From Bacteroidales bacterium (GTDB taxonomy: Bacteria; Bacteroidota; Bacteroidia; Bacteroidales; VadinHA17): a stretch of DNA of 44,414 nt. Position numbers and translations under genes: made by a program. The notes below the pieces were generated by a model. It did no database searches and had not been told where the DNA came from. It was given only the letters and a program-made list of their open reading frames with translations. Below, one piece after another: positions 5,146-33,712 of the stretch; the first letter of the stretch is position 1, and the number at the start of each line of letters is the position of its first letter. The stretch lies in assembly GCA_003162595.1 (NCBI GenBank), contig PMNJ01000345.1, positions 1 to 44,414 on the forward strand, in the 5' to 3' direction.

Positions 5146-5159
5146 ACAACAATTAATGG

Positions 5160-6200: not shown

Positions 6201-6352
6201 AATATGTACTTTTTATGGTTAAATATATTTGATATAGAAAACTGTTTCAATTACTAACTTTGTTTATTATGATATTCTTCAAATATTTAATATAATACTT
6301 TTAATGAATATTTATAAGAGTTCCTAATGAACAAAGAGTAAATGTGAAATTA

Positions 6353-6667: not shown

Positions 6668-6681
6668 TTGCCAGATTCCTA

Positions 6682-7089
6682 TCAGGCTTCCCGGTAATTT
6701 TTTTTAATTTGTCCGCTTATGGCCATGAATTCTTTTTTCTGGTCCATTTCATAAATACGTTCCATTAATATCCACTTACTTCCGGCAGAAGAATCAATGC
6801 TGGTATTCTGAAACCTAGAGACGAAACTTTCCCATTCTTTTTGTCTTGGTTTGGACGCAAGTTCCAGCATATTTTTATTATGGTCAAAATCTGCCACGGT
6901 ATCCATAATCATAAATAATATGTTCCCATGAATATATATCTCCATATCAATAATACCGACTTCTTTCATTCCCTGAGTAATTTCGGGCCACGCCTTATTT
7001 ATTGCATGAACTTCTTTATACTGGCTGAGAAGCTCAGGATCATCTTTCAGAGTAAGGATTTTGCAATATCGTTTAAATAAATATTCCAT
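6682..7089 (-). CDS. L-rhamnose mutarotase family protein (RhaM/DUF718-like deoxy-sugar mutarotase)
   Basis: 135 aa. The pattern YKEVHAINKAWPEITQGMKEVGIIDMEIYIHGNILFMIMDT...KEWESFVSRFQ parallels E. coli RhaM ([28 protein letters not shown]...LLFAMVE...RWWKYM). Specificity (rhamnose versus fucose) cannot be decided. Confidence 0.7.
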   Translation of the reverse strand: MEYLFKRYCKILTLKDDPELLSQYKEVHAINKAWPEITQGMKEVGIIDMEIYIHGNILFMIMDTVADFDHNKNMLELASKPRQKEWESFVSRFQNTSIDSSAGSKWILMERIYEMDQKKEFMAISGQIKKNYREA

Positions 7090-13500: not shown

Positions 13501-13952
13501 TGGAGTACGCACCATTCAATTCCTCCCGAGACCCAGGCTCCTGTCATCCCTATGTTGGTTGGTTTAACTACATCGTTTTTATAAACGAAATTATAATTAT
13601 CGGTCTTATCTGTTGCATAGTATAACTTCCCACCAATTTCAGGGGTAACACATAGTTTAATATATTCGTTTTCAAGCAATAAAGCTTTCCAGGCCTGATC
13701 TGTTTTTTTGTCGGAAATAACATCGTTTAATGCATATGGATAGATATATCTTGACGCTCCCTGGTAAGACTCATTCTTAAAGAATGCAGGATTTTTGTCT
13801 GGAGGCTCAACCTTATAAGTTGGAATAACCCATTGCTGTTCTGACATAGTAACTTGTGCCATCAGGTGATTCCCGATACAGGTAAAGAACACTGCAAGGA
13901 TAATGAGCTTCGAAAATCCTTTCCGGTAAAAAACACAAAAGTTATCTTTCAT
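10599..13952 (-). CDS. DUF5107-type N-terminal domain fused to a long TPR array (1117 aa, secreted)
   Basis: It has a signal peptide. The N-terminal ~470 aa (…LLENEYIKLCVTPEIGGKLYYATDK…GAWVSGGIEWCVLHHHR…) match my recollection of DUF5107, a mutarotase/supersandwich-like fold. The C-terminal ~640 aa show many 34-residue TPR-like units, for example AYYYLGNILYDKQPEKALGYWENAVKYDPGMAIAHRNLGWGYYQCQGDRDKAIAEYEKAVEL. Confidence 0.7.
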   Translation of the reverse strand: MKDNFCVFYRKGFSKLIILAVFFTCIGNHLMAQVTMSEQQWVIPTYKVEPPDKNPAFFKNESYQGASRYIYPYALNDVISDKKTDQAWKALLLENEYIKLCVTPEIGGKLYYATDKTDNYNFVYKNDVVKPTNIGMTGAWVSGGIEWCVLHHHRASCFLPVDYDLVENKDGSKTIWIGETEPRQRMRWTIGITAFPGKSYFQAEVKILNPTPYIHSFLNWANVAAHTDKDYQVIFPPSVQFATYHAKNDFTHWPISKEVYRGQDFTKGVDISWWKNTISANSYFAYDLKEDFMGAYDHGKETGTVHIGDHNIVKGAKLWEWGSGARGQATESRLTENAGPYVEIMVGAFSDNQPDYSWIKPYEVKSFKQYWYPIKDIQGFKYANLNGAVNLESREKNTVFLGYYSTQKVSKAKIILKNSGKVIFEKNLEISPVAGFTQSVKMDGIYKLTDLYTEMVNTETGEVLVSYQPVEQKYEEKLPDIVESPPLPKNIATIEELYLTGNRIEQFYNPTINPMDYYKEALLRDPSDIRTNIAVGNTYLKNGDYIKARSYFSKAIKRITKDYTRPSTCEALYLQGLTLKALGLYDEAIDTLYRATWDYAYHSAAYLELARISSINGNFARALDEINESLTTNSRNNSAIGLKASILRKMKNYKDASATLAPVTETDPLDFRLDNEKYLIAKESGNTQVSDRELTSLTTKMRDFDQNYLELAVGYINDGLDEEARDVLLRFNGKDPIVTYYLGYLSDKKGNKAESEKYFKSGSGQSVDYCFPFRLETIRVLETALKYNSSDSKAYYYLGNILYDKQPEKALGYWENAVKYDPGMAIAHRNLGWGYYQCQGDRDKAIAEYEKAVELKKDEPIYYEELEDLYAMSNAPIEKRLKLFEGKNEIVSKRDNAFASQIAVLTLGGKADKAVEYLAGKQFNYREGNSRVRDIIIDAYLTLGLKDLEEKNYQKALENFILGQVPEEEASGNRSNNRNIQVNYFIGITHEAMGSKSEAKKYFTLSAEPGSGSSDYISFYQGMSCLKLGKKAEAAEIFNSLIADGEKQINNGSSADVDFFAKFGEHESDNVRLSNAYLLKGLGYTGLGSSDLAKENLKKAVDLSVSNLWAKISLGQL

Positions 13953-14114
13953 AGAAGTGGTATTTAATTTATTTATCTGAATTAATTAAAATTTAATTTG
14001 AAAAGATTGCTCAGGATATATAATAAGATGCTGAATAAAGAATTTTCCCCAACTACATAATTTAATTTATAGTTGTAATAATAATCGTCAGGGTTAATCA
14101 CAGAATATATCTAT

Positions 14115-15743
14115 TCATTTCCCCGATATTTTTAATACATAAGCATATTGACAAGGTTGCGAAGCAGGTAACTGAACTGTAAGACCCTTCTCATTTTGAA
14201 CCCATTTTAATAAATCTTTTGAACCAAGCATTTGAATATCTCTTATTTCTCCAAACCAGAGCGCTTTTCCTTTATGCAATGATTTTATTGTGACCTCTTT
14301 CCCGGGCCAGGCCATCAGAATGGCATAAATACTTTTGCCCTTGGTTGTAAACCTGATGTCTTCAGCAGTGTATTCTTTTGGCCGGTTGCTTTGATTTCCT
14401 CTTACTTCCTGTACCTTAGTGGGTCCTTCTCCCATAATTTCCCATGGCCGTGTCCCGTGAATGGCCTCGCTGTTTACGGCCATCCATTGCGCCATTTCAT
14501 CAAGGAACTTATAGTAAGCATCAACGATGGTACCATCGGCACGAAGGTTAATATTTAGCAACAGATTCCCATTTTTACTTACTATATCCACCAGTTGTAA
14601 TACTACATCCTTTGTAAGGATGGGGCCTCTTCCCGAATATATGAGATACATGGGATTGATATAGAAAAATCCATCAAGGCCAGTATCAGTTTGCCAGGGA
14701 TATTTTCTTGGTATATCGCTCTGTGCGTTTTCAAGATCCAAAACAAGTGCTTTCTGCTGTTCTTCCGAACGCGATCCTTTAACATTAATTACAATCTCGT
14801 TTTTGCCGTTGTTCCATTTTTGACTTTGATTATAATAATAAGAGGCCATATCCAACCTGCGGAAAGGAAGACCGCCATCGTAATAAATCAGGTCAGGGTG
14901 ATAGTTGTCTATCAGGTCGACCATGCGGTTTATAAGAATCTGTTTAAAAAGTGAATCGGGTTGATCACCGTCATCACCAGGGAAAGGGCCTGAATAGGCT
15001 CCCTGCTTAGATCCTTTATGAGGCTGCCCGTATAAATCCCGCGGATCATACCCTTCCCACCATTTGCCTTTACCATCGGCCTTTGTCATCCATCCATCAT
15101 ATGGAACTCCTTTCAATGGTCCTGTTGTATCGGCCATGCGGGAAATCTCCCAGTATCTCCAGGTGCCTTCCCCATGATTTGAGACACCGAATTTCATGTT
15201 ATTATGTTTTGCAGCATTCTGCCATTCCTTCACTATATCCCTTTTAGGGCCCATATTCACTACATTCCATGGCTGATATTTGGAGTTCCACATATCGAAG
15301 TTATCGTGATGCATAGCCATGGACACAAAATATCGTGCGCCTGCCTTGTAGTAGAGTTTCATTAAAGCTTCGGGATCCCATTTAGCGCACGTGAATAAAG
15401 GAATTAAATCCTTAAACCCAAATTCAGAAGGGTGACCATATTTAATCAGGTGATAAGAGTAAGCGGGTATCAAATCAGGGAACGCCCAATTATTATCCTG
15501 TATATACAGTCGTCTGGGAAACCAGTCCCCGTACTCTGCCACACTGTTCGGACCCCAATGGGCCCAGATTCCAAACTTGGCATCGCGGAACCAATCGGGG
15601 CAATCGTATTGTTGGGAAAGCGATTCCCATGTCGGTTCAAAAGGTCCGGTTTTCGGCAGAAGCGGCTGTGCGGAACTGACAATGGACATTACCACAAAAA
15701 GCATACTGCATAGGCTAATTCGTGTAACAACATTCATTTTCAT
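14115..15743 (-). CDS. GH29 alpha-L-fucosidase (second, divergent paralogue)
   Basis: DWFRDAKFGIWAHWGPNSVAEYGDW, MAMHHDNFDMWNS and LIYYDGG blocks. SPI-type signal peptide (IVSSAQP). Confidence 0.9.
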   Translation of the reverse strand: MKMNVVTRISLCSMLFVVMSIVSSAQPLLPKTGPFEPTWESLSQQYDCPDWFRDAKFGIWAHWGPNSVAEYGDWFPRRLYIQDNNWAFPDLIPAYSYHLIKYGHPSEFGFKDLIPLFTCAKWDPEALMKLYYKAGARYFVSMAMHHDNFDMWNSKYQPWNVVNMGPKRDIVKEWQNAAKHNNMKFGVSNHGEGTWRYWEISRMADTTGPLKGVPYDGWMTKADGKGKWWEGYDPRDLYGQPHKGSKQGAYSGPFPGDDGDQPDSLFKQILINRMVDLIDNYHPDLIYYDGGLPFRRLDMASYYYNQSQKWNNGKNEIVINVKGSRSEEQQKALVLDLENAQSDIPRKYPWQTDTGLDGFFYINPMYLIYSGRGPILTKDVVLQLVDIVSKNGNLLLNINLRADGTIVDAYYKFLDEMAQWMAVNSEAIHGTRPWEIMGEGPTKVQEVRGNQSNRPKEYTAEDIRFTTKGKSIYAILMAWPGKEVTIKSLHKGKALWFGEIRDIQMLGSKDLLKWVQNEKGLTVQLPASQPCQYAYVLKISGK

Positions 15744-15958: not shown

Positions 15959-17704
15959 TTATTTAACCGGAACCAGATTGACTTTTACCAGCACTATACC
16001 TGCCGGGCCCCTCTGTTCGGGATCTTCAGAAAGAATAGGTTTCCCCTGATCCGCAATAATGTTATTTACAATCTGATTTCCGGTTGAAGTAAGTCTTCGA
16101 CCTCCCAATGAACGATCTGTTGCTACCATGCACACTACCTGCTCTTCAGAAACGTTAGCCAACAAATTATGCGCTATAATGGCGTTATCAGTATCAGCGA
16201 GACGTACACCTTCTCCATCGACATTCCAAAGGATATTATTATCGACCATATTTAGTACCTGTGATGCCTCAATGAAAATAGCCCCCTGCACTGTATTTAT
16301 GTCTAGAAGTACATTTCTTGTGACTCGAGAATTCTGATTAGCAAAATCCAGCCAGATTCCGCAACCACCCTGTATGTGCGAAATATAATTATTCTTTACC
16401 AGTGTCCCGCTGGCACCAAGTAGTTTAATCCCGGCAACTTCCCAATGAAACTCAGCATCCTGCCACCCACAATCAGAGACATTATTTTCCTCAACTATTG
16501 CGTTTGATGTACCGAGACCCCGTATTCCAGCTGTACCGCAACCGCAAACGACATTTCGTCGTACGATATAGTGCCCTATGTTCAAATCCACGGATCGATT
16601 GGCAGGTTGTTCCTGTCCTTGTGCAGGAGGTTGACCTTGTCCTACCACGTTTCGGGGATTCCTCGAATCTTTACCCTCGTAAGCCCGATCACCCATCTCT
16701 ATCCCTAATGAGTTGACGTTCCGTACTGTATTTCCCTCTATAATCCAATGATGTCCACCCATAGTAAAGAGTGCTCCTTCTCCAGTGCGAAGAAATCCAT
16801 TGGCGCAATGCTCTATAATCAATCCGCTAATTCGAATATATCCTAAACCAATAGATTGGGGCTGAATTATATGATGTTGCACGGCGATTTCAAACAACTG
16901 ATTATTCGGATTTTTATTACCAAATGGATGAATATGAATAGTCTTACAATCGGGCCCTACCCAGTAAGAGCCGGGTAAACGAACTAGGTCCTCATACACA
17001 GCTAATTGTGACATACGTCGTCCTTCCTGGAACAGTAAACAGCGTGGAAGTATATATGGTATGCGACCTTTCCACCTTGATGCCCAGTTCATCATCTCGA
17101 ATTCTGCGTCAGTAGTGTTAGGGGTCTTTAACGGGAAGTAACCGTTTTCAAACATATTATCAGGCAGTATCGTCATCAGAATTTGCTTTGAATATGAGTT
17201 AGCAGGAAAACCCAATTCTATGTTTAATTTCAGGCTGCCTGAGGCGGCAAGCGAATCATGAGGATCGACAGATAATACCCACTTCGAAGTAATCACACGC
17301 GAGCCCCGTATTATTACCTGTTCGCCCGGTGCGGCCTCGTATGATATCATTTTGTCAGGTCCTTCTCCAGAATGGAGTGGCCGGACTAATTCCCTGTAGG
17401 TACCTGAATGTATGTAAACCCGTTCGCCAGGCTTCACAACCTGCGCGGCGTGGTTTATAGTCAGAAAAGGGTGTTCTTCTGTCCCATCATTTTCGTCAGA
17501 CGCCTTTGGGTCATTCTGGCTTACGTGATAGGTTCTGGTATAGGTTGTCTGATCGCTCCAACTCATAAATGGGGTCCCGTCAGGCAGTAAAGTTTGCGAA
17601 ACTAAAGGCTGGTAATTTACATCCTTCCTGATCTGCGCCTTTGAAACAAAACTATATGATAATAAAATAAAAGCTAATACAAAAAAAACGGCGATCTTTC
17701 TCAT
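15959..17704 (-). CDS. Secreted right-handed parallel beta-helix repeat protein (pectate-lyase fold; GH141-like or PL-like, unassigned)
   Basis: It has a signal peptide. An N-terminal cap motif, NDGTEEHPFLTINHAAQVVKPGERVYIHSGTYRE, is typical of this fold. Later coils are periodic: IIEGNTVRNV, IVRRNVV, IVEENNVSDC, LVKNNYISHI, VTRNVLLDIN, MVDNNILWNV, IIAHNLLANV. A Gln/Pro/Gly-rich insertion, VVGQGQPPAQGQEQPA, lies at about nt 16592-16684. Confidence 0.7.
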   Translation of the reverse strand: MRKIAVFFVLAFILLSYSFVSKAQIRKDVNYQPLVSQTLLPDGTPFMSWSDQTTYTRTYHVSQNDPKASDENDGTEEHPFLTINHAAQVVKPGERVYIHSGTYRELVRPLHSGEGPDKMISYEAAPGEQVIIRGSRVITSKWVLSVDPHDSLAASGSLKLNIELGFPANSYSKQILMTILPDNMFENGYFPLKTPNTTDAEFEMMNWASRWKGRIPYILPRCLLFQEGRRMSQLAVYEDLVRLPGSYWVGPDCKTIHIHPFGNKNPNNQLFEIAVQHHIIQPQSIGLGYIRISGLIIEHCANGFLRTGEGALFTMGGHHWIIEGNTVRNVNSLGIEMGDRAYEGKDSRNPRNVVGQGQPPAQGQEQPANRSVDLNIGHYIVRRNVVCGCGTAGIRGLGTSNAIVEENNVSDCGWQDAEFHWEVAGIKLLGASGTLVKNNYISHIQGGCGIWLDFANQNSRVTRNVLLDINTVQGAIFIEASQVLNMVDNNILWNVDGEGVRLADTDNAIIAHNLLANVSEEQVVCMVATDRSLGGRRLTSTGNQIVNNIIADQGKPILSEDPEQRGPAGIVLVKVNLVPVK

Positions 17705-17736: not shown

Positions 17737-19029
17737 TTAATCGGAAATTGACTGAAAGACAAGGTTTTTGAACTTGCCGATCAGATTTTCACTCCAGTAA
17801 TTATCTACCTGCGACATAAAAATTCCGATTAGATCTTCCTTCGGATCAACCCAGAAGCGAGTATAGAATGCTCCATCCCATCCGAATGTTCCGAGCGACT
17901 CGAGTTCATCAAATATTCCTCTTTCGGTACGTATCCCAAATCCATAACCGAATTTATCTCCCATTATCCCGTTGTGGGCAAAAGAAGTAAAAATGAAGAT
18001 ATTGCCTATAGAATTTGTAGTCATTAATTCAACACTCTTCCGGCTTAGTATCTGTTTCCCTTCCAGTTCCCCCTTATTCAATAACATTTGCGCGAATCTT
18101 GCATAATCAGTGGCAGTAGAAACCAGGCCGGCTCCGCCTGAAAAATAGGTCTGAGGTTCAGGGTATTGAAAATACTTGGTAACCTTTTCAAGTTTGCCAT
18201 TGGCTCCCATTATGTATAAAGTGGCCAGTCGTGGGAACTTATCACGGGGAAGGGTAAAATATGTATCCTGCATTTTCAAAGGTTCAAAAATCCGTTTCCT
18301 CATGAATTCATCCAGTGGCATCTTGCTTACCACCTCAATGAGATAACCGAGCACATCGACAGACATGCCATAATTAAATTCTTCTCCTGGTTGTGAAACA
18401 AGTGGTAATGGTCCCAGATTTTTTATCATATCGCCTATTGTCCCTTTGGTAGGCAGCAATCCGACTGTCATTCCTGCCTGCCTGTAATATATTCCCTGCA
18501 AAGCGCTGCCATAAGTAATGCCGGAGGTATGGTTAAGCAGTTCCCGTATGGTAATTTCACTTTTTGCAGGTACGAGAATAATACTGTCAGATGTGGGAGA
18601 TCTCTCAGCCACCTTAGGGTTCTTAAACTCAGGTATGAATTTTGAAACAGGATCGGTAAGAAGAAAATAGCCTTCCTCATATAAAGTCATTACGGCAACT
18701 GAAGTTATTGCTTTAGTCATTGAAGCTATCCGGAATATAGCGTCATTTGTCATTGGTTTTTTTTCTTCAATATCCTTCAACCCGAAAGATTTGAAATACC
18801 CTACTTTGCCATGACGAATCACCATAGCTACTGCACCTGGCAATTTCCCTTGTTTTATATAATCGTTTAACACCGTATCTATCCGGTTTAACCTTTCAGA
18901 AGAGAGACCTATTTTTTCAGGAACAGTGGCAGGAAGTCCCTGCCCCGGAGCAATCCATGCTGTAGATAACAGTATTAAAAAAAAGAGGATCATTTTATAA
19001 GTTACTGTAATGAAATGATTTCGTATCAT
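17737..19029 (-). CDS. Beta-lactamase-fold serine hydrolase (class C/PBP4-like; candidate esterase)
   Basis: An S-x-x-K motif occurs in FRIASMTKAITSVAVM about 90 aa from the N-terminus. Signal peptide present. Length (430 aa) and overall pattern are typical of 'serine hydrolase domain-containing' proteins. Confidence 0.8.
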   Translation of the reverse strand: MIRNHFITVTYKMILFFLILLSTAWIAPGQGLPATVPEKIGLSSERLNRIDTVLNDYIKQGKLPGAVAMVIRHGKVGYFKSFGLKDIEEKKPMTNDAIFRIASMTKAITSVAVMTLYEEGYFLLTDPVSKFIPEFKNPKVAERSPTSDSIILVPAKSEITIRELLNHTSGITYGSALQGIYYRQAGMTVGLLPTKGTIGDMIKNLGPLPLVSQPGEEFNYGMSVDVLGYLIEVVSKMPLDEFMRKRIFEPLKMQDTYFTLPRDKFPRLATLYIMGANGKLEKVTKYFQYPEPQTYFSGGAGLVSTATDYARFAQMLLNKGELEGKQILSRKSVELMTTNSIGNIFIFTSFAHNGIMGDKFGYGFGIRTERGIFDELESLGTFGWDGAFYTRFWVDPKEDLIGIFMSQVDNYWSENLIGKFKNLVFQSISD

Positions 19030-21251: not shown

Positions 21252-24170
21252 TCAATTTCCATTACGATCCTGTCGATGGCCAGAGATACGGGCCAGAATC
21301 CGATCAAGAGCAACCGCATCAAAATATTCCTGATCCTGATTCTCGTAAGGTACATCAACCATTATAGGTACTTTAGGCTTCAGGCTGATAAATTTAACCA
21401 GTTCTTCCTCATGGTTCGATCCTGCGATCGGTCCGTAAACATTCCATCTCAGGCCTTCAAGGTCATAAGCCGAAGTACTAACAATCCACATGCCAATATG
21501 CTCTATGATCTCAGACGTGATTTCCTTTGGATCGGTCTTTGAGTCCATCAGCAGTGCAGTGCTAGGCGCAAGTTTCAGATTGGGGGCCCCTACCCTTTTG
21601 AGGAATTGCATCGCCTCAATCAGGTCGCTTGGCGGTCTGTTGGGCGCCAGACGAAGATAGACCGTTATATTACGCAATTCTGCTTCGCGACAAATTTTAG
21701 CAATAGTAGTATCATAACTCTTCCATGTGGCCTCATGTGAAATATTATTTTCGACGTATCTCTGAAGCGGAATCAGCAGATCATGTGCACCCAGAATTTC
21801 CATTTTCTCCACAACGTCGAGAATGCTTGCCACACTTTGTTTATATTCCGGTTCTATGTTGTTCACGATCCTGAGATCGGGAAAAAGGTTGATTCCCGAT
21901 GTCAGATCCACCATAACCCTTACCTTTTGCAACCCAAGCCAGCCTGCTTCCTGTTTAAGGGTCGATTTCTCAAGATGGGCTAAGTATTTCCAGTCTACGG
22001 TAACTCCGTCATAATGCTGGAAGAAGGTCGGCCTTGTAAGTATCTCATCCTGTATATTAACGGGTCCATGCAATGGAAGAAAACGATTTTGGGGATTAGC
22101 CGGAGGAGTAATATGAGCAATTTCTTCTACCCCTTCCTCCTTCACCCTGATATGGAAGATCCGGATATCACCGCCAGCGATAGTGTTCTTTCCGCTCGTG
22201 CCGATAATTGCATTCTCAAAGCCTTCCGGTAAATAACCGATGGCTTTTTTCTCAGACTGATCAAGCGGCATTTCATCAATTGTTTGTATCGGTCCAACTT
22301 TCGATACGATCCTTAATGGCAATTCCGTCAATGAGTTATTGGAAATACCGAGAGTGTAGTCGCCAGTCCCGCGCCGGCATACGATCAGTGAAAGCCCATC
22401 ACCGGCATCGAACAATTTCAGGCTCTGAAAGGCCTGATCCAGAATATCCCGGACATGATGCAGAATAGGATATGGATTTACTAACGGCTTATCTACAGGG
22501 CTTACTATTGGTTCCTTAACAGTGGTTTCTGCTCCAATCCCAAAGGGACTTGCAAACACCGTAATCATACCATTGCCCAGCGGCATCCTTATTACCGCCG
22601 GTGTCCCGTTCACACTGGCCAGAATCTGCGCTCCGGCAGGAACACTCAGGGGTAACAGTTCAAATGGCTGGCCCTCTGTGATCGAACCAGATCCAATAGA
22701 AATCTTTTGCTCACCGCTGAAAAGTCTGGCATGTCCTTCACTTTCAATACCAGCCAGACCACCTGGCAGATTCCGGAGACTGCCGGCCGTGATTAACAGA
22801 TTTCCGCCATGTTCAGCATAGGTACGGAGTTTGTCGCGAACCTCTGCCCCTCCGGAAAGTTCTCCTGCTACAATCATTAACGGATACCTCTCCAGAAGCC
22901 ACTCCGGTGCATCACTCAGGATGACATCAGATGCATCTCCATAGGGTGTGCTCGTTGCGAAACCTGTTTCGTCGTGAAAAAATGAAGAGTTCTGGTAGCC
23001 CGGGTAAAGCATATCAAAAATATTGTTTGTGAGATAATCTCCGCTGCCGTACGGAAGATTTCCCCACACACGGTAAAGGATATTATCGTAATCCGGAAAA
23101 ATCCAGCCCATATAGAAATCCATCATAATACATATCGGCGTTTGCATTACGCCGGGTTGGCCATTTACCCTGACCCATCTCTGGGCCGACTGCTGAATTT
23201 TACCGATAGGTGATAAGCTGTCGCCAGCGAACCATTCATTCTCGAAACCTACCAGCATTGAGTTATATAAAATGTGGCTGTAAAGAAGACGTTTCAGAAG
23301 ACTGAGACTGGTTCCCTTTGTGGGACTGCTTCTGGTGTCACCATAGCTCTTTCCTCCCCAGCGATTATAAATTGAGGCATTACCGAACCACGGCACACCA
23401 TACTCTTTACCTGCACCACGGTCAAACGCGTAAAACACCTGGGCATTTGGGTGTTCCTGCGCTGCCTCGGAACCTACTAATGTATATAACCCCTCCTTTA
23501 AAAAATAGTGCCCGTATGTAATAGCCGTAAGAGCGGCCATTTTGTTTCCGCACTCACTTGTTATCTTCTCCATATGCCTGTGAAAATTCAGATATTGCTG
23601 GGGCCGGTTAGCTGACGAAGGATACATCTGGCTGGCATAAGCTATAACGTAGCGTCCATCCTGTTCTCCCATATCCATGCCCAGCCAGTGGTCTCCGAGT
23701 TTTGTCTCAAACAAGCTTGATATCTCGGGAGTTAAGCCAACTTGCTGCCACTGCCCACCAGAGCCTGAACCCGGAACATAGCCCCATATCTCATACAAGA
23801 ATAGGTCACGCTTTTTTATTTCGTCTACCAGATCGGGGATGTTTTTAGCAACAAGGAATGAATTATTCGGCCAGATGAAATCGCCCAGATCAAATGTCTT
23901 TGTAAAACGCTCTATCTCCTCAGCGTAACCGGTAAGTTGTCCGTTTACCACACGAAATTGTCGCAGCGTTGTGAAATGCGTCCGGTCACCCATGAGGTTC
24001 CAATCCGGTGGCTTCACATGCCTGCGGGCATCATCCGGGTATTCGCGTGGATTGAGTAATTGCCCGTAAACCTTTAACCTGGCAGTGTGGATTGTCTGTG
24101 CACGCAGTGGTTGAACAATAACTAAAGTCAATATGAAGGCAATGGAAAGTCCAGATATCATTCTATTCAT
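21252..24170 (-). CDS. Large secreted multidomain protein of unknown family (GH42-like architecture plus an extra C-terminal TIM-like domain, by inference)
   Basis: 972 aa with a signal peptide (VQPLRAQ). aa ~25-410 contain MDMGEQDGRY and LVGFENEWF motifs. aa ~415-480, YPLMIVAGELSGGAEVRDKLRTYAEHGGNLLITAGS, resemble the GH42 middle (trimerisation/glutamine-amidotransferase-like) domain. aa ~590-680 look like a beta-sandwich. aa ~700-960 resemble a xylose-isomerase-like TIM barrel. I recognise no family-diagnostic motif. Confidence 0.55.
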   Translation of the reverse strand: MNRMISGLSIAFILTLVIVQPLRAQTIHTARLKVYGQLLNPREYPDDARRHVKPPDWNLMGDRTHFTTLRQFRVVNGQLTGYAEEIERFTKTFDLGDFIWPNNSFLVAKNIPDLVDEIKKRDLFLYEIWGYVPGSGSGGQWQQVGLTPEISSLFETKLGDHWLGMDMGEQDGRYVIAYASQMYPSSANRPQQYLNFHRHMEKITSECGNKMAALTAITYGHYFLKEGLYTLVGSEAAQEHPNAQVFYAFDRGAGKEYGVPWFGNASIYNRWGGKSYGDTRSSPTKGTSLSLLKRLLYSHILYNSMLVGFENEWFAGDSLSPIGKIQQSAQRWVRVNGQPGVMQTPICIMMDFYMGWIFPDYDNILYRVWGNLPYGSGDYLTNNIFDMLYPGYQNSSFFHDETGFATSTPYGDASDVILSDAPEWLLERYPLMIVAGELSGGAEVRDKLRTYAEHGGNLLITAGSLRNLPGGLAGIESEGHARLFSGEQKISIGSGSITEGQPFELLPLSVPAGAQILASVNGTPAVIRMPLGNGMITVFASPFGIGAETTVKEPIVSPVDKPLVNPYPILHHVRDILDQAFQSLKLFDAGDGLSLIVCRRGTGDYTLGISNNSLTELPLRIVSKVGPIQTIDEMPLDQSEKKAIGYLPEGFENAIIGTSGKNTIAGGDIRIFHIRVKEEGVEEIAHITPPANPQNRFLPLHGPVNIQDEILTRPTFFQHYDGVTVDWKYLAHLEKSTLKQEAGWLGLQKVRVMVDLTSGINLFPDLRIVNNIEPEYKQSVASILDVVEKMEILGAHDLLIPLQRYVENNISHEATWKSYDTTIAKICREAELRNITVYLRLAPNRPPSDLIEAMQFLKRVGAPNLKLAPSTALLMDSKTDPKEITSEIIEHIGMWIVSTSAYDLEGLRWNVYGPIAGSNHEEELVKFISLKPKVPIMVDVPYENQDQEYFDAVALDRILARISGHRQDRNGN

Positions 24171-24325: not shown

Positions 24326-24365
24326 ATAAAAAAATGATGGAGGTTAAGAAGTCTCAACCTCCATC
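24326..24365 (-). terminator. Intrinsic terminator immediately downstream of susD
   Basis: The minus-strand RNA reads GAUGGAGGUU-GAGACUUCUU-AACCUCCAUC followed by AUUUUUUUAUAUA. The stem is a perfect 10 bp (24336-24345 / 24356-24365) and the U7 tract corresponds to 24328-24334. It starts 7 nt after the susD stop codon (24372-24374). Confidence 0.7.
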
Positions 24366-24371
24366 AAATAA

Positions 24372-26156
24372 CTAATTCCATCCCGGGTTTTGAACAAGCT
24401 TTGTATTAAGCGTAAGCTGATCTAATGGAAGTGGATAAAGATACAGCTTTTCATCCCATGTGCGCGATGCAACTGTATATGGCTGCAGCAGTTTTTTTGT
24501 TTTACCGTCCCAGTCAGTTATGGTCAACAGTGGTCTTCCGGAAAACTGATCTAATCCATTATTGTAATATTTATACCTAGCTATAACACCAGAATCGACC
24601 ACAAGGCCTACCATTGTTTTAGGATTCTCAATGAGTTTACCGGCATGCCAACGAACAATATCATCCCAGCGAAAACCTTCAAAAGCAAGCTCTATCCTGC
24701 GCTCACGCCTTAATTCATATATAAGAGGGGATACAACATATCCGTACCGTGGCTGGCCATTTATAAGCGCATTCGGATCGGTTGGGGGATTTAGTGTTAA
24801 ACGACCCATTGTAAAATTTCCGGGTTCATCCAGTCTGGCACGAAGCAAATTAATGGAATTGTCCAGATCGCCCTGTGTAATGGTGCCCAGTTCAGCTTTT
24901 GCCTCAGCAAATGTTAACAGAACTTCGGCATACCTGAAAATAAACCAGTCATCAGTTGTCGCATTAGCATCATTCTCTTTTACTATAGGATCTCTGAATT
25001 TAGCCATAAGATATCCTGTCGGACATATACTCCCAGTAACCGGAGTCACTGGGTACGTAACAAGATCAGCTCCGTTCATAAACATTGGCAGGAATTTATT
25101 ATCAATCATGTTCCTTAATCGGGGATCCCTATGAGCCATTTCCATCCACACAGAGTCATCGCCAAGATATAACGGGCTAAGTGAAATTGGCAAACCATCT
25201 GTGCAAAGGAATGACTCGATGAAATCTTTGGTTACCCCATATCCTGCTCCAAATCCACTTCCTGATTCTCTGTTTGTTACAATACCAAGTATATAAATGC
25301 GGGGAAGCACACACTCAGGATTGGATGTCAAATCTTCCTGTATAAATTGTTGCTTATAATACAAGGGATAACCCTGAAAGGAATAAGGACCAGTTCCTTT
25401 CACAATATTATAACCTCCGTTAGTCATTATGTCTTGAGCAGCAGAAACTGCTAATGTCAAATAAGGTTCCCATCCGCTGATATTTCTATATTTCAGATAG
25501 GTTCCCTCGTAAAGACAAACACGCGCCAACATCTGCAATGCGGCATAATGGTGCAATCTTCCAAGATCTACCTTTGCAGGGATATGAAGATGTGAAACGG
25601 CAAATTGAAGATCGGTAATAATACTATCTACCACCGTCTTCATTGGAGTACGGGCAGCGAATAAAATAGAATTGTCCGTTACATTAAGATTTTTGTCTAT
25701 CCAGGGAACATCTCCGAAGGTTTTAACTTTATTGAAATATTCATTAGCCCTGAAGAACCTGATTTCTCCGATATATTGATTAATATCTGCCGTATCACCA
25801 ACAACCGTCTTATAATGACTTAAAGCGTAATTCAGATTTCTGATATTTGACCAGTCGGTGTAACTCCAGCCGCCACCAGATGGAGGCACTGCCATTGCAT
25901 CAAAAAGAAGTGGATCTGGTGTACTTGCGAGAAGGTTATCGCTGGGAGAGTCGTAAAAAACCTGGTATGTGGAATTAGCAGCTGGCCCTGGAAGAGTGGT
26001 ATAAAAACCGTTAGCAAACAACTTCATATCAGCTGGAGTTTTCCAGAAGTTTAAATCGGTAATTGAATCCTGAGGAATAGTATCGAGTACTTTTTTACAA
26101 GAAGAAATAGCGACTAGTATTCCTGCTATAATAATTATATAATGTTTAATTTTCAT
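24372..26156 (-). CDS. susD: SusD/RagB-family nutrient-binding outer-membrane lipoprotein
   Basis: 594 aa with a lipoprotein signal, MKIKHYIIIIAGILVAISSCKK. It lies directly downstream of susC (20-nt gap). The C-terminal ...RRERRIELAFEGFRWDDIVRW... block is typical of SusD-like proteins. Confidence 0.9.
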   Translation of the reverse strand: MKIKHYIIIIAGILVAISSCKKVLDTIPQDSITDLNFWKTPADMKLFANGFYTTLPGPAANSTYQVFYDSPSDNLLASTPDPLLFDAMAVPPSGGGWSYTDWSNIRNLNYALSHYKTVVGDTADINQYIGEIRFFRANEYFNKVKTFGDVPWIDKNLNVTDNSILFAARTPMKTVVDSIITDLQFAVSHLHIPAKVDLGRLHHYAALQMLARVCLYEGTYLKYRNISGWEPYLTLAVSAAQDIMTNGGYNIVKGTGPYSFQGYPLYYKQQFIQEDLTSNPECVLPRIYILGIVTNRESGSGFGAGYGVTKDFIESFLCTDGLPISLSPLYLGDDSVWMEMAHRDPRLRNMIDNKFLPMFMNGADLVTYPVTPVTGSICPTGYLMAKFRDPIVKENDANATTDDWFIFRYAEVLLTFAEAKAELGTITQGDLDNSINLLRARLDEPGNFTMGRLTLNPPTDPNALINGQPRYGYVVSPLIYELRRERRIELAFEGFRWDDIVRWHAGKLIENPKTMVGLVVDSGVIARYKYYNNGLDQFSGRPLLTITDWDGKTKKLLQPYTVASRTWDEKLYLYPLPLDQLTLNTKLVQNPGWN

Positions 26157-26176: not shown

Positions 26177-29100
26177 TTAAAATGTAACGCTAATACCAAA
26201 ATCGTACGATGAAGGTATCGGATATGAATTGGATGAATTGGCTTCAGGATCATAAAGTTGAGTGAGTTTGGTAAAAGTCAGAACGTTCTGCATTGTAAAA
26301 TAAACCCTTAAGTTACTTATTGATACCTTTTTTACTATTTCTTCCGGTATTGTATACCCTAGGGTTAACTGCTTAAGTCTCATATAAGCTCCATTCTGAA
26401 GATACCTTCCACAAATCTGTCTGTTTCCATGTCCTCCATCGCCCCATCCACTTAGATAATTATTGGGGAAATAAGCATTCGGATTTTGAGTTGTCCAGTA
26501 GTCCATGGCATATTTCGAAGGAGCAAATCCAGAAGTCCCATTAGTTCCAAAAAAGCGATCCTGATCAGCCCAGTCTAGATTAGGCCAAATATCTCTTTTC
26601 CCTACGCCCTGTAGAAATAAACTTAGATCAATTCCTTTCCATGCACCATTCATTGTCACACCGTACAGATATCTGGGTGTACTGTTACCGATAATATGCT
26701 GGTCCCCCGGATTGGATAGTGTATTGTTTCCAAATGTAATTTTGCCATCACCGTTCCTGTCGACATATTTTACATCACCAGGATTCCATGTTCCCGCATA
26801 TAACTGAGATTGGTCAGGCGAGGAAGCTATTTGAGCACTAGATTGAAACAATCCGGCTGCGTCAAATCCCCATATATCTCCAATTTTTTCACCTGCATAA
26901 TAACTGCTCAACAGACCGCTAGGATTCGAATACTTTGTAATTTCAGATTGAGCATCAGATAAGTTGGCCGAGATACTATAGGAAAAATCTCCGATGTGGT
27001 CCTTCCATGTAACATCAAAGTCCCAACCATAGGTTTTCAAATTGGCAGCATTTTGATTGGGAACTGCTGCACCAAGCACCGCTGGAAGAGTTTCTCCTGG
27101 CGTAAGCATTCCTATTGTGGCTCTATTGTAGTAGTCATAGCTTACTGATAATTTATCCTTAAAGAAGCCTAAATCAAAGCCTATATCCCATTGATTTACT
27201 TTTTCCCAAGTTAAAGAAGGGCTGACCAGACTGCCTGCCTGCATGGTGACGGGCGTAGCTCCTCCAAGTATGTATGAGGCTATATTGCCTGCTGCTCCCG
27301 GACTTGTAGGGGCAGTAGTAATAATATAGGAAGAAACATAAGGGAAGTTCCCTGGAACATTCTGGTTACCTAAAGATCCGTATGAGCCCCTGATTTTGAG
27401 AACATCGACGTAAGATTTCAGATTATCCCAGAAAGCTTCTTTCGATATAAGCCAGCCTCCTGATACTGAAGGAAAGAAAGCGTACCTGTCATTTGTCGGA
27501 AATTTCGAAGAACCATCATATCTTCCATTAAGTTCTAATAGATATTTACCGTCATAATCATAATTAAATCTGAAGAACTCTCCCTGAACCGCCCAGAGTG
27601 TATTACTTCCATTGACAGTCGCTATCCCTGTTGCCGCGTTTATAGCTGGAAGATCATTATCAATCAGGTTTAATCTTTGCGCACTAAAGAACTGTGTGCT
27701 TTGGGTTTCCTGGTTATATCCTACCAGAATTTTAAAATTATTTTTTGAAAAGCTCTTTGAATAATCCGCATATATATTTACTGCATTGTAGAAACGAAGA
27801 GTATTATCATCTGTAATGGAATTTGGATTTGTCCAGGGATAAAGAGCTGTTGTTCCATCTGCTCTTGGTTCATAATACTCACGAATATAAAGGTCATGAT
27901 TTTGATTATACGGATTAAAGGTATAATCTGCATTAATATTTAAGTCTTTTATAGGGCGGATTGTAATAGTACCTGTCAAAAACAAATCATTGGTCTTAGT
28001 ATGATCCCAACCACCTTCTGCAGCATTAGAAAATGGATTAGTAAAATGTCCTTCTCCAGACCATGAACCGTCAGGAAGTTTTATAGGAATCAGGGGGGAG
28101 ATGTCCCAATTTTCGTATCCCATTGAGGTATTTTGTGAAGGATGATCCTGATAACCATTTGAATATTTTGTTCTTCCTGAAACCGTCAACCAATTAGATA
28201 AATCAGAGGTGACATTAATACTTATGTTATGCCTGTTATATAAATCATTATATGGAGTCAAATTTCCGGTCTGGCCCATTAAACCATAGGAAACATAGTA
28301 TTGGGTCTTCGCCGAACCTCCAGACAGACTGATATTTAATTGTTTCACTGCACCATTTTTATAAAGTGCATCAGCCCAATTAGTATTAGCACAGTAATTA
28401 TATACTCCGGTAAGATCAATTGAGGGATCATAGAAAACATCCGAATTATGAGCAGGATCATTATAATAAGCTAGAATATGCTGCGTAGTTCTTTGATCAA
28501 ACTGTAATACTCCAGTTGTATTCATACTGGCTTGATTAACAAAATCAAGATACTGCTTGCTATCAGCCATTTGTGGAACATTGGTCGGATGTTGGATAGA
28601 ATAAGAGCTTGAAATCGTTAAAGTCGATTTCTGATCTTTTTTACCTTTTTTTGTAGTAATAAGTATCACACCGTAAGCAGCTCTTGCTCCATAAATTGCA
28701 GCCGATGAAGCATCCTTCAGTACTGTGACGCTTTCAATATCCTTAGGATTCAGTGTATTTGGATCTGCTACAACGCCATCTATCAGGACGAGAGGGCTGC
28801 CCCCATTTATAGATGTATAACCCCGGATATTGAATGCTGCTCCGGATCCTGGTGAATAACTGCTCTGAGATACCTGTAGGTTTGAAATAGTACCCTCAAG
28901 GCCTTGTCCTAGATTGACGAGCGGACGACTTTCTAAAACCGTAGAATTTACCTGAGCTACTGCGCCTGTAAGATCTGCTTTTTTCTCTGTTCCGTAGCCA
29001 ACTACGACCACTTCATTAAGTCCGACAGCCGCTTCTGCCATTATTACATCTACTTTTGTTCTGCCATTTAAGGGAATTTCCTGTGTGGCCATTCCTATAA

Positions 29101-29653
29101 AAGAGAATATTAACGTAGCGTCCTGAGGAACATCATTTAAAATGTATTTACCTGACGCGTCAGTAAGAATTCCGTTAGTGGTTCCTTTGATAAGAATGGT
29201 AACACCCGCCAACTTGTTCCCTGATTCATCGGTAATGGTTCCCGTAATTTGTTTTTGTTGATATTCTGAAAGTATTTCAGATTGGTCATCTGAGGTGAGA
29301 ACAACCTGACGGTCAAAAACAGCAAACTTAACTTTCTTATCAAACAGATTGCTTAAAATGTCTTTGATTGTTTCGTTCTCCGCATCAATATTTACTTTCC
29401 TTTCAACATCGATTAGTTTAGGACTGTAAAGAAAATAGAACTCACTCTGATTTTCAATCTCCTTCAGTGCATCTGAGATTTTAACATCTTCAAGCTTTAG
29501 GGTTAGCTTAGTCATCTGAGAATATGTTTCAGTTGCCCAGAGCTGAGAAATTGTCAGGATAGATAATAGTAGGGTTAGTTTCATGACATTGATTGTTTTT
29601 TTTGAAAAGAATCCAGAAAGGTTCCTTTCACAATAATCTCGAAATTTTTTCAT
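26177..29653 (-). CDS. susC: SusC/RagA-family TonB-dependent transporter with an N-terminal STN signalling domain (transducer type)
   Basis: Domains in order: an STN-like segment (LKLEDVKISDALKEIENQSEFYFLYSP...FAVFDRQVVLT); a carboxypeptidase-D-regulatory-like domain (ITGTITDESGNKLAGVTILIKGT); a plug (VVVVGYGTEKKADLTGAV); and a C-terminal ...SYDFGISVTF ending in an aromatic residue. I chose the ATG at 29653; the ATG at 29584 is also possible, and the track start at 29731 is probably an over-extension. Confidence 0.9.
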   Translation of the reverse strand: MKKFRDYCERNLSGFFSKKTINVMKLTLLLSILTISQLWATETYSQMTKLTLKLEDVKISDALKEIENQSEFYFLYSPKLIDVERKVNIDAENETIKDILSNLFDKKVKFAVFDRQVVLTSDDQSEILSEYQQKQITGTITDESGNKLAGVTILIKGTTNGILTDASGKYILNDVPQDATLIFSFIGMATQEIPLNGRTKVDVIMAEAAVGLNEVVVVGYGTEKKADLTGAVAQVNSTVLESRPLVNLGQGLEGTISNLQVSQSSYSPGSGAAFNIRGYTSINGGSPLVLIDGVVADPNTLNPKDIESVTVLKDASSAAIYGARAAYGVILITTKKGKKDQKSTLTISSSYSIQHPTNVPQMADSKQYLDFVNQASMNTTGVLQFDQRTTQHILAYYNDPAHNSDVFYDPSIDLTGVYNYCANTNWADALYKNGAVKQLNISLSGGSAKTQYYVSYGLMGQTGNLTPYNDLYNRHNISINVTSDLSNWLTVSGRTKYSNGYQDHPSQNTSMGYENWDISPLIPIKLPDGSWSGEGHFTNPFSNAAEGGWDHTKTNDLFLTGTITIRPIKDLNINADYTFNPYNQNHDLYIREYYEPRADGTTALYPWTNPNSITDDNTLRFYNAVNIYADYSKSFSKNNFKILVGYNQETQSTQFFSAQRLNLIDNDLPAINAATGIATVNGSNTLWAVQGEFFRFNYDYDGKYLLELNGRYDGSSKFPTNDRYAFFPSVSGGWLISKEAFWDNLKSYVDVLKIRGSYGSLGNQNVPGNFPYVSSYIITTAPTSPGAAGNIASYILGGATPVTMQAGSLVSPSLTWEKVNQWDIGFDLGFFKDKLSVSYDYYNRATIGMLTPGETLPAVLGAAVPNQNAANLKTYGWDFDVTWKDHIGDFSYSISANLSDAQSEITKYSNPSGLLSSYYAGEKIGDIWGFDAAGLFQSSAQIASSPDQSQLYAGTWNPGDVKYVDRNGDGKITFGNNTLSNPGDQHIIGNSTPRYLYGVTMNGAWKGIDLSLFLQGVGKRDIWPNLDWADQDRFFGTNGTSGFAPSKYAMDYWTTQNPNAYFPNNYLSGWGDGGHGNRQICGRYLQNGAYMRLKQLTLGYTIPEEIVKKVSISNLRVYFTMQNVLTFTKLTQLYDPEANSSNSYPIPSSYDFGISVTF

Positions 29654-29803
29654 AGATTTGAATGGATTAAGTTTACTTAAGTTTTTTAACAGAAATCTAG
29701 TTCTTAGTCTGGCGGGATTGTGTGGTAGCACTATCCCGCTTTTTTCATAATTAGCTTTGTTTCATAAGCATATCATTTTATTGGTTAGGATCATGTTCGT
29801 ATT

Positions 29804-30892
29804 CTATTTGTTCTTGTAACTCAGGATGATTTTTCTCTTGGAAAAGGTTCCCGAACTTATTTCTTTCCTATTTGAAATAGAATATTTCACCGGGGACACA
29901 AGGGCAATAAGCTCCATTACCTGAGGTAGTGTTTCATGAACAAACGTAGCGGTATAGTTAAGATCAAGTAATTCGGGATCTTTTATCTGAATATCAACAT
30001 TAAACCATCTGCTTAGTTTTTTAACAACTTCTCCAATTGGTTCCTTATTAAATACAAGTTTCCCGTCTTTCCACGAAAAATACCTGTCATCATTGATAGT
30101 TCTGGTACTGATTTCGTTATTACTGATATGAAAAACAGCCAATTCAGTCGGTGTCATTCTTGACAGAGTGATTATCTTCCCATCTGGCTGAGTTTGTTGT
30201 AACTCAACGTAACCTTCTATAAGTGAAGTTTCTATTCTGTCTTCGTCAGGATAAGACATTATATTAAATGTAGTCCCAACAGCTTTAATCTGAATTTTTC
30301 CCGTTTTTACGATAAAAGGGATTTTTGGATTATGAGCTACTTTAAAATATCCTTCTCCGGTAAGCTCAACTGTCCGGATATCTCCATGAAAGATTGCCGG
30401 ATATTTTAATGAACTGCTATGGTTCAGCCAGACTATTGAACTATCAGGCAAAACAACTTTAGTAATCGCATCTGCAGAAGAAAAGACCTCATTATATGCC
30501 TGAGTTATAAAAATCTGATTATGCCTGGTTGTCCGGTATTTAGAAGAGATGTACAAACCATATGTCAAAACCGGAATCATAAGTATTGCTGCAGCCTTTG
30601 TAAGAATATTTAAAAAATGCTTTCTCCTGTTATACTTTATTAAATTCTGATCAGCTTTCTCAATAAGCTTTTTCGATTGGCCCAGATTGACTTTGTGGTG
30701 AATTTTGTCCAGAATAAAATCAAAATCTGTTTGTGGGTTACTCTCCTCATCAGACAATTCTTCCCATATACTCAATAAAAGAGCTTTGCTTTCAGAGATA
30801 CAGGCAGAGCTATTAAACCATTCTAAAACCGATTTCAACTCTTCTTCTGAGCATGTATTATTACAATAATTTTCCAATAATTTTTTATCCAT
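29804..30892 (-). CDS. FecR-family anti-sigma factor (single-pass membrane sensor)
   Basis: 362 aa. It has an N-terminal cytoplasmic segment (MDKKLLENYCNNTCSEEELKSVLEWF), one TM helix (ILTKAAAILMIPVLTYGLYI), then FecR and C-terminal domains (VVLPDSSIVWLNHSSSLKY...GEGYFKVAHNPKIPFIV). It sits between the ECF sigma gene and the STN-SusC gene. Confidence 0.9.
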   Translation of the reverse strand: MDKKLLENYCNNTCSEEELKSVLEWFNSSACISESKALLLSIWEELSDEESNPQTDFDFILDKIHHKVNLGQSKKLIEKADQNLIKYNRRKHFLNILTKAAAILMIPVLTYGLYISSKYRTTRHNQIFITQAYNEVFSSADAITKVVLPDSSIVWLNHSSSLKYPAIFHGDIRTVELTGEGYFKVAHNPKIPFIVKTGKIQIKAVGTTFNIMSYPDEDRIETSLIEGYVELQQTQPDGKIITLSRMTPTELAVFHISNNEISTRTINDDRYFSWKDGKLVFNKEPIGEVVKKLSRWFNVDIQIKDPELLDLNYTATFVHETLPQVMELIALVSPVKYSISNRKEISSGTFSKRKIILSYKNK

Positions 30893-31134: not shown

Positions 31135-31722
31135 CTATACAAAAAGATGCAAAAAGAGTATTGCAATGAGAGAATAATTGCCCAGTTTTTTACGGATAGT
31201 TTTTAGTGCCCGAGACATATGGTTTTCAATAGTATTTACAGAAATATCTAAGAGTACTGCAATTTCGCTATATTTCAGGGCTTCAACCTTATGCAGCAGA
31301 TAAACCTCTTTTTGGCGCTGAGGTAATGCGTATACAATTTCATTTATTTTATTTGTCAACTCAGTATATTCAAGTTCCATATTGACAGGCTTCTCGTAGA
31401 TTATTTGCAGAGACTTCAAATATTCAACAAACTTAGATTCCATCGCTTTTTTACGGAGAATGGAAATAGCTGAATTATAAGTTATAGCGAATATATAGGA
31501 TTTAATTGATGAGTCCTTCTCAACTTTATGTCGATTTTCCCACAAATTAAGAAAAACATCCTGAACAAGGTTCTCTGTCTCTTCATGTGATTTAAGAAGA
31601 GAATAACCAAACTTATAGAGCTTTTTACTATACTTTTTATATATAAGATCAAAAGCAAACATATTGTCAGCCTTGATTTCCCGCATTAATTCTTCATCAC
31701 TATATAAAATAAGTTCTTTCAT
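31135..31722 (-). CDS. ECF-type RNA polymerase sigma-70 factor (Bacteroides PUL-associated type)
   Basis: 195 aa. Region 2: FDLIYKKYSKKLYKFGYSLLKSHEETENLVQDVFLNLW. Region 4 HTH: RQKEVYLLHKVEALKYSEIAVLLDISVNTIENHMSRALKTIRKKL. It lies directly upstream of the FecR-like gene. Confidence 0.9.
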   Translation of the reverse strand: MKELILYSDEELMREIKADNMFAFDLIYKKYSKKLYKFGYSLLKSHEETENLVQDVFLNLWENRHKVEKDSSIKSYIFAITYNSAISILRKKAMESKFVEYLKSLQIIYEKPVNMELEYTELTNKINEIVYALPQRQKEVYLLHKVEALKYSEIAVLLDISVNTIENHMSRALKTIRKKLGNYSLIAILFLHLFV

Positions 31723-33633: not shown

Positions 33634-33712
33634 TTTCAATAAATTAAGTTTTTTAAAAATATGTTCTTCTATTAAAGACACATAGCAGTAAAATTAAATT
33701 AGTTTTACGAAG

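Follow-up and report, generated by a model that had tools for sequence, protein, structure and literature searches.

The locus examined here raises the question of what kind of protein is encoded by the first gene after susD in a window of 44,414 nucleotides (the whole stretch of DNA that was analysed, contig PMNJ01000345.1 of GenBank assembly GCA_003162595.1) from a Bacteroidales bacterium of the VadinHA17 lineage. The open reading frame (ORF) lies on the minus strand, a point left unstated in an earlier note on this DNA; it starts with ATG at 24170-24168, ends with TGA at 21254-21252 and encodes 972 amino acids (aa). As that note had it, this is the next gene downstream of susD on the same strand, with an AT-rich gap of 201 nt between the two; a gene for a glycoside hydrolase (GH) of family GH2 begins 37 nt downstream of it. 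A word-indexed search yields 1,047 homologues, of which the best 120 are 51-99% identical to the query, most of them being about 930-1,010 aa long and covering it nearly end to end. Given the number, similarity and length of these relatives, the ORF is a genuine gene and not a chance one. With a little more confidence than doubt, we favour a periplasmic, probably exo-acting, retaining GH that would belong to an undescribed family of the GH42/GH164/GH35-like (clan GH-A-like) type and would carry a fourth, C-terminal domain with a structural or binding role.

An AlphaFold2 model of the protein obtained with a 40-sequence alignment (mean pLDDT 85.3, pTM 0.86), together with Foldseek searches, reproduces at the level of fold the split into four parts that the earlier note had made by eye. 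These parts are a predicted (beta/alpha)8 barrel (domain A), an alpha/beta middle domain (domain B), a beta-sandwich (domain C) and a second, xylose-isomerase-like TIM barrel (domain D). The motifs singled out in that note are readily located, namely MDMGEQDGRY at aa 165-174, GFENEWF at aa 308-314, and YPLMIVAGEL and HGGNLLITAGS at aa 429-438 and 454-464, the last two corresponding to nt 22779-22886, inside the interval of about 22731-22928 given for them. The best matches of the Foldseek search against the PDB (E 1e-15 to 1e-12, probability 1.00, about 750-900 aligned columns at about 10% identity) include GH42 beta-galactosidases and an alpha-L-arabinopyranosidase (8ibt, 5dfa, 4ucf, 5xb7), the GH164 beta-mannosidase 6t7g, the GH35 entries 7vl3 and 7vkz, and the GlmA-type entries 5gsm, 8oug and 6jow, all of which share the order barrel, alpha/beta domain, beta-sandwich. 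With the GH42 three-domain fold, about 800 columns are aligned at a target-normalised TM score of 0.46-0.50. Domain B resembles the GH42 'trimerisation' domain and the second domain of GLMA, and the weak Pfam matches of the family agree with the fold search in pointing to a GH42-like three-domain body followed by a xylose-isomerase-like TIM barrel.

Comparison with the individual GH families defines how far this similarity goes. The GH42 enzymes BiBga42A (8IBT), Gan42B (5DFA) and BlArap42B (5XB7), the best Foldseek matches with E of about 1e-15, share with the target the succession of barrel, alpha/beta 'trimerisation' domain and beta-sandwich, as well as two conserved glutamates at a similar spacing, and the relatives of the target show weak matches to Glyco_hydro_42M and GLMA_2nd. 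However, the identity is about 10%, a match to PF02449 is lacking, the target adds a C-terminal TIM barrel of 260 aa, its motif reads Gly-Glu where most clan GH-A families have an Asn before the acid/base Glu, and it appears to be exported whereas the characterised GH42 enzymes are mostly cytoplasmic. The GH164 beta-mannosidase Bs164 (6T7G; PMC7105311), matched in fold as closely as the GH42 enzymes (E 2.6e-15), is likewise a three-domain protein from a Bacteroidota glycan-degrading context, and its domain A (aa 22-389), with the acid/base E160 on strand 4 and the nucleophile E297 on strand 7, is very near in its boundaries and residue positions to aa 29-411 of the target with E169 and E310; nevertheless, there is no detectable sequence similarity between the two and no fourth domain in Bs164, and the beta-mannosidase specificity is not transferable. 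The GH35 beta-1,2-glucosyltransferase from Ignavibacterium (7VL3) and the archaeal GlmA exo-beta-D-glucosaminidases (5GSM, 8OUG, 6JOW) are matched in fold with E values from 1e-14 to 5e-12, and GLMA_2nd is the Pfam model most often matched by the middle domain of the target family, but these enzymes have no C-terminal TIM barrel and a profile-profile comparison with GH35 is not significant. By its sequence, then, the target falls outside the definitions of GH42, GH164 and GH35 although it is GH42/GH164/GH35-like in fold.

The query itself has only two Pfam matches, both sub-threshold: PF01261 (AP_endonuc_2) at aa 758-893 (E 8.4e-6; 26.1 bits, below the cut-off of 31.1) and, in the middle domain, where all its matches are under the curated cut-offs, GLMA_2nd at aa 426-461 (E 0.19). 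When 40 family members were scanned against Pfam one by one, with matches counted at E<=1, PF01261 was found in 36 of the 40 (best E 1.4e-12), and the middle domain matched GLMA_2nd in 27, DUF4350 in 14 (best E 3.7e-5) and Glyco_hydro_42M (PF08532) in 12 (best E 0.0028); PF02449 (Glyco_hydro_42) was matched neither by the query nor by any of these members. NCBIfam release 20 and the PDB sequences (up to 2026) gave no match to the whole query. A 40-sequence profile run against the PDB sequences had no hit in the N-terminal body; its hits were marginal and confined to the C-terminal barrel, namely AsbF (E 0.009) and D-tagatose 3-epimerase (E 0.026). Thus, the earlier note, which knew of no such architecture, is in agreement with these data: Pfam, NCBIfam and PDB profile searches do not place the protein in a known family with a known activity, and a characterised relative was found neither in NCBIfam and the PDB sequences nor among the NCBI, IMG and UniRef-derived names, nor in the full-text literature.

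The novelty of the family was judged against Pfam, NCBIfam, the PDB and the literature, with CAZy and dbCAN not among these resources, and this is the main caveat. Since a number of CAZy families lack both a structure and a Pfam model, the protein might be an ordinary enzyme of known activity from a CAZy family that is already defined but missing from Pfam, NCBIfam and the PDB. We consider this quite unlikely, given that more than 100 relatives go under no other name than 'hypothetical protein' or 'TIM barrel protein' in the NCBI, IMG and UniRef-derived labels, that neither an NCBIfam match nor a sequence relative in the PDB exists, and that the full-text literature yielded no paper describing this architecture. 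Two candidate families, GH165 and GH173 of the 'unpredictable' beta-galactosidases (Cheng et al. 2017), were considered and rejected; the domain content of their founding members is unrelated.

The family is large, and its architecture is stable. An exhaustive profile search identifies 1,706 clusters at 50% identity with E<=1e-3, 519 of them with E<=1e-30, in Bacteroidota, Acidobacteriota, Planctomycetota, Verrucomicrobiota, Hydrogenedentota, Omnitrophota, Kiritimatiellae, Spirochaetales, Clostridia and others; two cultured species, Parabacteroides leei (GYB001) and Aquisphaera insulae (JC669), are among the carriers. The 90%-identity cluster of the target also contains a protein from a Bacteroidales MAG, in line with an uncultured Bacteroidales origin of the window. 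With a separate hidden Markov model (HMM) for each part, all four parts are detected in 109 of the 150 best representatives. The remaining ones are mostly short, with one or the other terminus falling within a conserved motif, and resemble fragments from contig ends; neither a split version nor a stand-alone domain D was seen among these 150. The four-part fusion is therefore, as far as the per-part models and the near-full-length close homologues indicate, a fixed feature of the family, which answers the question posed in the earlier note of whether the fusion is conserved in homologues or split into two genes. In addition, two long members have a CBM_4_9 domain and one member is fused to an alpha/beta-hydrolase.

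Conservation within the family was assessed in 74 full-length representatives, 26-48% identical to the query, and the query itself (n=75). The proportion of columns that are at least 90% identical is 9.9% in domain A (38/383), 5.2% in domain B, 2.8% in domain C and 0.8% in domain D (2/261), so that conservation is highest in domain A. The near-invariant polar and aromatic residues are E169, D171, E235, R251, K274, Y302, E310, D351, W356, W369, E401, D415 and D420. E169 (present in 74 of the 75 sequences) occupies the C-terminal end of the predicted strand 165-169, E310 (71 of 75) directly follows the predicted strand 306-309, and the spacing between them, 141 residues, compares with 137 in GH164 (E160/E297) and 157 in the Rahnella GH42 enzyme, where the catalytic pair is E157/E314 (PMC7105311). 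Because of their position at strand ends, their conservation and this GH164/GH42-like spacing, we propose E169 and E310 as the catalytic pair, candidate acid/base and candidate nucleophile, respectively, of a retaining enzyme. The body formed by the N-terminal (beta/alpha)8 barrel, the alpha/beta middle domain and the beta-sandwich would hydrolyse glycosides by double displacement, with E169 and E310 proposed to sit at the ends of strands 4 and 7, respectively.

In the beta-sandwich, N611 (75/75; codon 22338-22340) and E633 (73/75; codon 22272-22274) are conserved like the putative catalytic glutamates, which is unexpected in a domain without an assigned function in GH42 and GH164. These two residues may extend to the active site or to the contact surface with domain D.

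The C-terminal barrel presents the opposite picture. Further down the Foldseek list, the C-terminal part of the model matches the D-psicose/tagatose 3-epimerase 8xiv (TM 0.73, E 6e-11) and E. coli YcjR, 6wn6 (TM 0.73, E 2e-10; both TM scores target-normalised), so that domain D shares the PF01261 fold of the ketose 3-epimerases (8XIV, 8XIX) and of the 3-keto-D-glucoside 4-epimerase YcjR (6WN6). Unlike these enzymes, it is poorly conserved, is joined to a body that resembles a glycosidase and is apparently exported in the window protein, and their metal or catalytic ligands are replaced in it. The first Glu of the epimerases aligns with R840 both in the HMMER alignment with D-tagatose 3-epimerase and in an hhalign comparison of the family with YcjR that is weak (E 0.13) and served just to cross-check this Glu-to-Arg replacement; the Asp and the His align with S870 and I896. 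Across the family, position 840 is R in 30 and Q in 23 of the 75 sequences, position 870 is N in 30 and S in 17, and position 896 is L, V, W or I. All three alignable ligands of the Glu-Asp-His-Glu tetrad are replaced in this way; the fourth lay past the alignable region, and in the alignment of the 75 sequences no conserved Glu was seen on the strand that follows the His position. As far as the three alignable ligands are concerned, the alignments indicate that the canonical metal site is absent throughout the family. Because these ligands are replaced and because conservation is lowest in this part of the protein, domain D probably does not act as a canonical isomerase or epimerase. The isomerase/epimerase likeness that the earlier note saw in this region holds for the fold, and a canonical activity of this kind is unlikely.

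Domain D is not featureless, however. Only P714 and D755 (the latter in 73/75) reach at least 90% conservation in the wide family, but 50-64 of the 75 sequences retain each of a set of polar residues located where the strands end (D726, N761, K789, H803, E807, D903, D939, Y942, D951), with individual counts of 55 for D726, 56 for H803, 50 for E807, 56 for D903 and 58 for D939. This set, together with the fold of the ketose 3-epimerases and YcjR and with the fusion itself, which 109 of the 150 best representatives and the close homologues of near full length retain, is what could be expected of a bifunctional enzyme, a modified version of the idea in the earlier note, in which the body would release a sugar and the barrel would convert the sugar or glycan (by isomerisation, epimerisation, dehydration or elimination) at a non-canonical site. 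We regard such an enzyme as improbable: the alignable canonical ligands are all lost, domain D has 2 columns of high conservation against 38 in domain A, the complete D-D-H-D-D core is found in just 32 of the 75 sequences, and the window protein itself has Q803 (codon 21762-21764) where 56 of the 75 distant relatives and most of the close ones have His. Moreover, oxidoreductases or other partners of a keto-sugar pathway do not recur consistently around the homologues. A link to the oxidative 3-keto-glycoside pathway was considered and dismissed as anecdotal, with GFO/IDH/MocA oxidoreductases, stand-alone AP_endonuc_2 proteins and 3-keto-disaccharide hydrolases found in 0-2 loci each. Similarly low is the probability that we assign to a further idea, in which domain D contributes an additional active or ligand site of a novel type, either lacking a metal site or liganded by D726/D755/H803/D903/D939, and acts on the same sugar or glycan as the body; if so, the family would represent a widespread enzyme, exported or cytoplasmic, that works in two steps ('cleave-and-convert') and is without precedent among carbohydrate-active enzymes (CAZymes).

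The most likely role of domain D is that of an accessory domain, structural or substrate-binding, that is, a permanently fused xylose-isomerase-like TIM barrel that would have lost its canonical metal site. In the GH42 and GH164 trimers, a neighbouring protomer completes the active site (PMC7105311). By analogy, domain D may stand in for this protomer and shape the active site of the body.

Several observations weigh against the favoured reading of the protein. At the sequence level, a link to any GH family was not found in Pfam or in the GH35 profile comparison, and no Pfam family matches the first 410 residues, that is, domain A, in any of the 40 members scanned. An hhalign comparison of domain A with a GH35 profile, which was the family built from the window's own GH35 gene, is not significant (E 0.2) and matches only the beta3 unit; a forced longer alignment put the GH35 catalytic residues elsewhere and, having zero confidence, was discarded. 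Parts of domain A are predicted with moderate confidence in the full model (pLDDT 57-86 at aa of about 170-290), and an AlphaFold model of domain A by itself, from a cut 15-sequence alignment, reached a pLDDT of 44 and was not used for the fold search. The assignment of E169 and E310 comes from strand position and conservation only, and the residue that precedes the putative acid/base E169 is Gly168, not Asn. The semi-conserved polar cluster on the catalytic face of domain D (D726, D755, H803, E807, D903, D939) could be a functional site. Finally, a conserved operon partner was not found in 44 loci examined with phmmer and all-against-all clustering, the commonest neighbours being SusC/SusD, in 5 loci.

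Some of these points, namely the Gly-Glu in place of the usual Asn-Glu and the missing sequence link to a proven hydrolase in Pfam and in the GH35 comparison, together with the presence of the GH35 transglycosylase (7vl3, 7vkz) among the best fold matches, would also fit a non-hydrolytic protein on a GH-like scaffold, such as a transglycosylase resembling the GH35 beta-1,2-glucosyltransferase, a phosphorylase or an inactive binding protein. This seems unlikely to us. Two glutamates that are about 95-99% conserved at the expected strand ends, along with many invariant polar and aromatic residues, argue for an active enzyme; a locus with many exo-hydrolases favours degradation; and the leader peptide puts the window protein in the periplasm, which is an unusual place for a phosphorylase that yields sugar phosphates. 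The leader is also in line with the retaining GH that we favour. The N-terminus of the window protein, MNRMISGLSIAFILTLVIVQPLRA followed by QT, resembles a signal peptide and contains no lipobox cysteine, which suggests that the protein resides in the periplasm and is not a lipoprotein on the cell surface. Among 77 full-length representatives, 38 have a hydrophobic leader and 31 (about 40%) have no N-terminal extension. Because leaders are present in part of the relatives and absent from others, the family would work in the periplasm or in the cytoplasm, which fits action on small oligosaccharides; intracellular GH42 enzymes act on small imported oligosaccharides.

The position of the gene had been taken in the earlier note as a hint at a key early step, and this suggestion finds no support. 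The lipoprotein signal that is typical of genes directly after susD, encoding a surface glycan-binding protein (SGBP) or a surface endo-enzyme, is not seen in the leader of the target; about 40% of the relatives are leaderless; no neighbour is conserved across the 44 loci; and a terminator-like hairpin, located in the 201-nt gap directly after the susD stop, hints at partial termination there or at a separate transcript for the enzyme genes that follow.

With respect to genomic context, the genes for the extracytoplasmic function (ECF) sigma factor, anti-sigma factor, SusC, SusD, the target and GH2 are all encoded on one strand in the window, the composition of a polysaccharide utilization locus (PUL), and the same arrangement is found in four other loci (L001, L023, L025 and L031). 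The enzymes encoded in the window locus are GH2, two GH29, GH95, GH78, GH31, GH35, GH50-like and GH120-like proteins, alongside an AraA/FucI-like isomerase, a beta-lactamase-fold protein, a DUF5107-TPR protein, a rhamnose mutarotase, a permease and a kinase. A minimal version, in a Chitinophagaceae genome (L001), comprises sigma, anti-sigma, SusC, SusD, the homologue, GH95 and ThuA. In other Bacteroidota loci with SusC/SusD, the neighbours include GH29, GH95 or GH95-like, GH141, GH78, GH106 and GH123-like proteins; GH89, GH9 and GH51 also occur in Bacteroidota loci, and outside Bacteroidota the neighbours vary widely; alpha/beta-hydrolase esterases adjoin the target homologues in a few loci. 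Because of these loci and of the fusion or adjacency of CBM_4_9 and esterases, the link of the family to carbohydrate breakdown, as judged from gene content, is solid. The context is not conserved across phyla and so does not point to a substrate. In the window, the substrates would be oligosaccharides brought in by the adjacent SusC/SusD pair, in a PUL otherwise full of fucosidases, rhamnosidase, galactosidase and other exo-enzymes, and we infer exo-action for the target as well. Since fucosidases and rhamnosidases recur nearby, one can speculate that the enzyme removes a residue that becomes exposed once the deoxy-hexose caps are gone, e.g., beta-linked galactose. The coordinates of the target gene, its parts and the genes upstream of it are given in Table 1.

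Table 1. Coordinates of the target gene, its predicted domains and candidate catalytic codons, and upstream features of the locus
Feature	Position in window (nt)	Strand	Basis or remark
Whole ORF, 972 aa and stop	21252..24170	minus	belongs to an unnamed family with four domains
Signal-peptide-like leader, aa 1-24, MNRMISGLSIAFILTLVIVQPLRA followed by QT	24099..24170	minus	read from the sequence; close homologues alike
Domain A, predicted (beta/alpha)8 barrel, putative catalytic domain, aa 29-411	22938..24086	minus	model, Foldseek, conservation
E169 codon GAA, invariant G-E-Q-D-G motif, candidate acid/base	23664..23666	minus	conservation, strand position, spacing
E310 codon GAG, G-F-E motif, candidate nucleophile	23241..23243	minus	conservation, strand position, spacing
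Domain B, alpha/beta middle domain, aa 412-546	22533..22937	minus	weak Pfam matches in relatives, Foldseek span
Domain C, beta-sandwich, aa 561-701	22068..22490	minus	model, Foldseek, alignment
Domain D, xylose-isomerase-like TIM barrel fold, aa 706-966	21273..22055	minus	Foldseek, Pfam, alignments
Terminator-like hairpin, 14-bp stem and T-run, directly after the susD stop	24335..24366	minus	consensus scan
susD	24372-26156	minus	upstream of the target
susC	26177-29731	minus	upstream of susD
Anti-sigma gene	29804-30892	minus	further upstream
ECF sigma gene	31135-31722	minus	further upstream

Several other genes of these loci deserve mention. In the window, the 595-aa ORF at 8775-10562 (minus strand) has no Pfam match, and a comparison with the PDB identifies the GH50 beta-agarases 6xj9 and 4bq2 (E of about 1e-44); it is located in a non-marine-looking locus for fucose and rhamnose. 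The right-handed beta-helix protein encoded at 15959-17704 (minus strand) matches the GH120 beta-xylosidase XylC (3vst, E 3e-34), not a pectate lyase or GH141. The protein encoded at 17737-19029 (minus strand) has a beta-lactamase fold (PF00144) and, situated amid a GH operon, is probably a carbohydrate esterase, not the product of a resistance gene. The 486-aa protein encoded at 32221-33681 (minus strand) shows weak matches to the C-terminal domains of L-arabinose and L-fucose isomerases and could represent a diverged isomerase for deoxy sugars, belonging together with the rhamnose mutarotase, permease and FGGY kinase encoded at 3619-7089. Proteins of about 1,050-1,120 aa with DUF5107 and TPR repeats recur near the target homologues in three unrelated loci, at 10599-13952 (minus strand) in the window, at 2344-5490 in L032 and at 15330-17971 in L044. 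In the Chitinophagaceae locus L001, the GH95 downstream of the homologue (13098-15563) is called as two genes, for an N-terminal domain (287 aa) and a catalytic part (489 aa), which could be due to a frameshift, a pseudogene or an assembly error.

If the reading of the target as a retaining GH is correct, these proteins would constitute a new GH family of about 1,700 or more clusters (50% identity) in many phyla, which is invisible to Pfam and NCBIfam annotation and for which the label 'TIM barrel protein' is misleading. The candidate residues E169 and E310 make this hypothesis directly testable. No new principle would follow unless the C-terminal barrel proves to be catalytic; as an accessory domain, it would be a clear case of a degenerate isomerase-fold barrel that has been recruited as a fixed part of a glycosidase. 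For the organisms, the enzyme would close a gap in the way in which Bacteroidota of soil, sediment and gut are predicted to degrade glycans rich in fucose and rhamnose.

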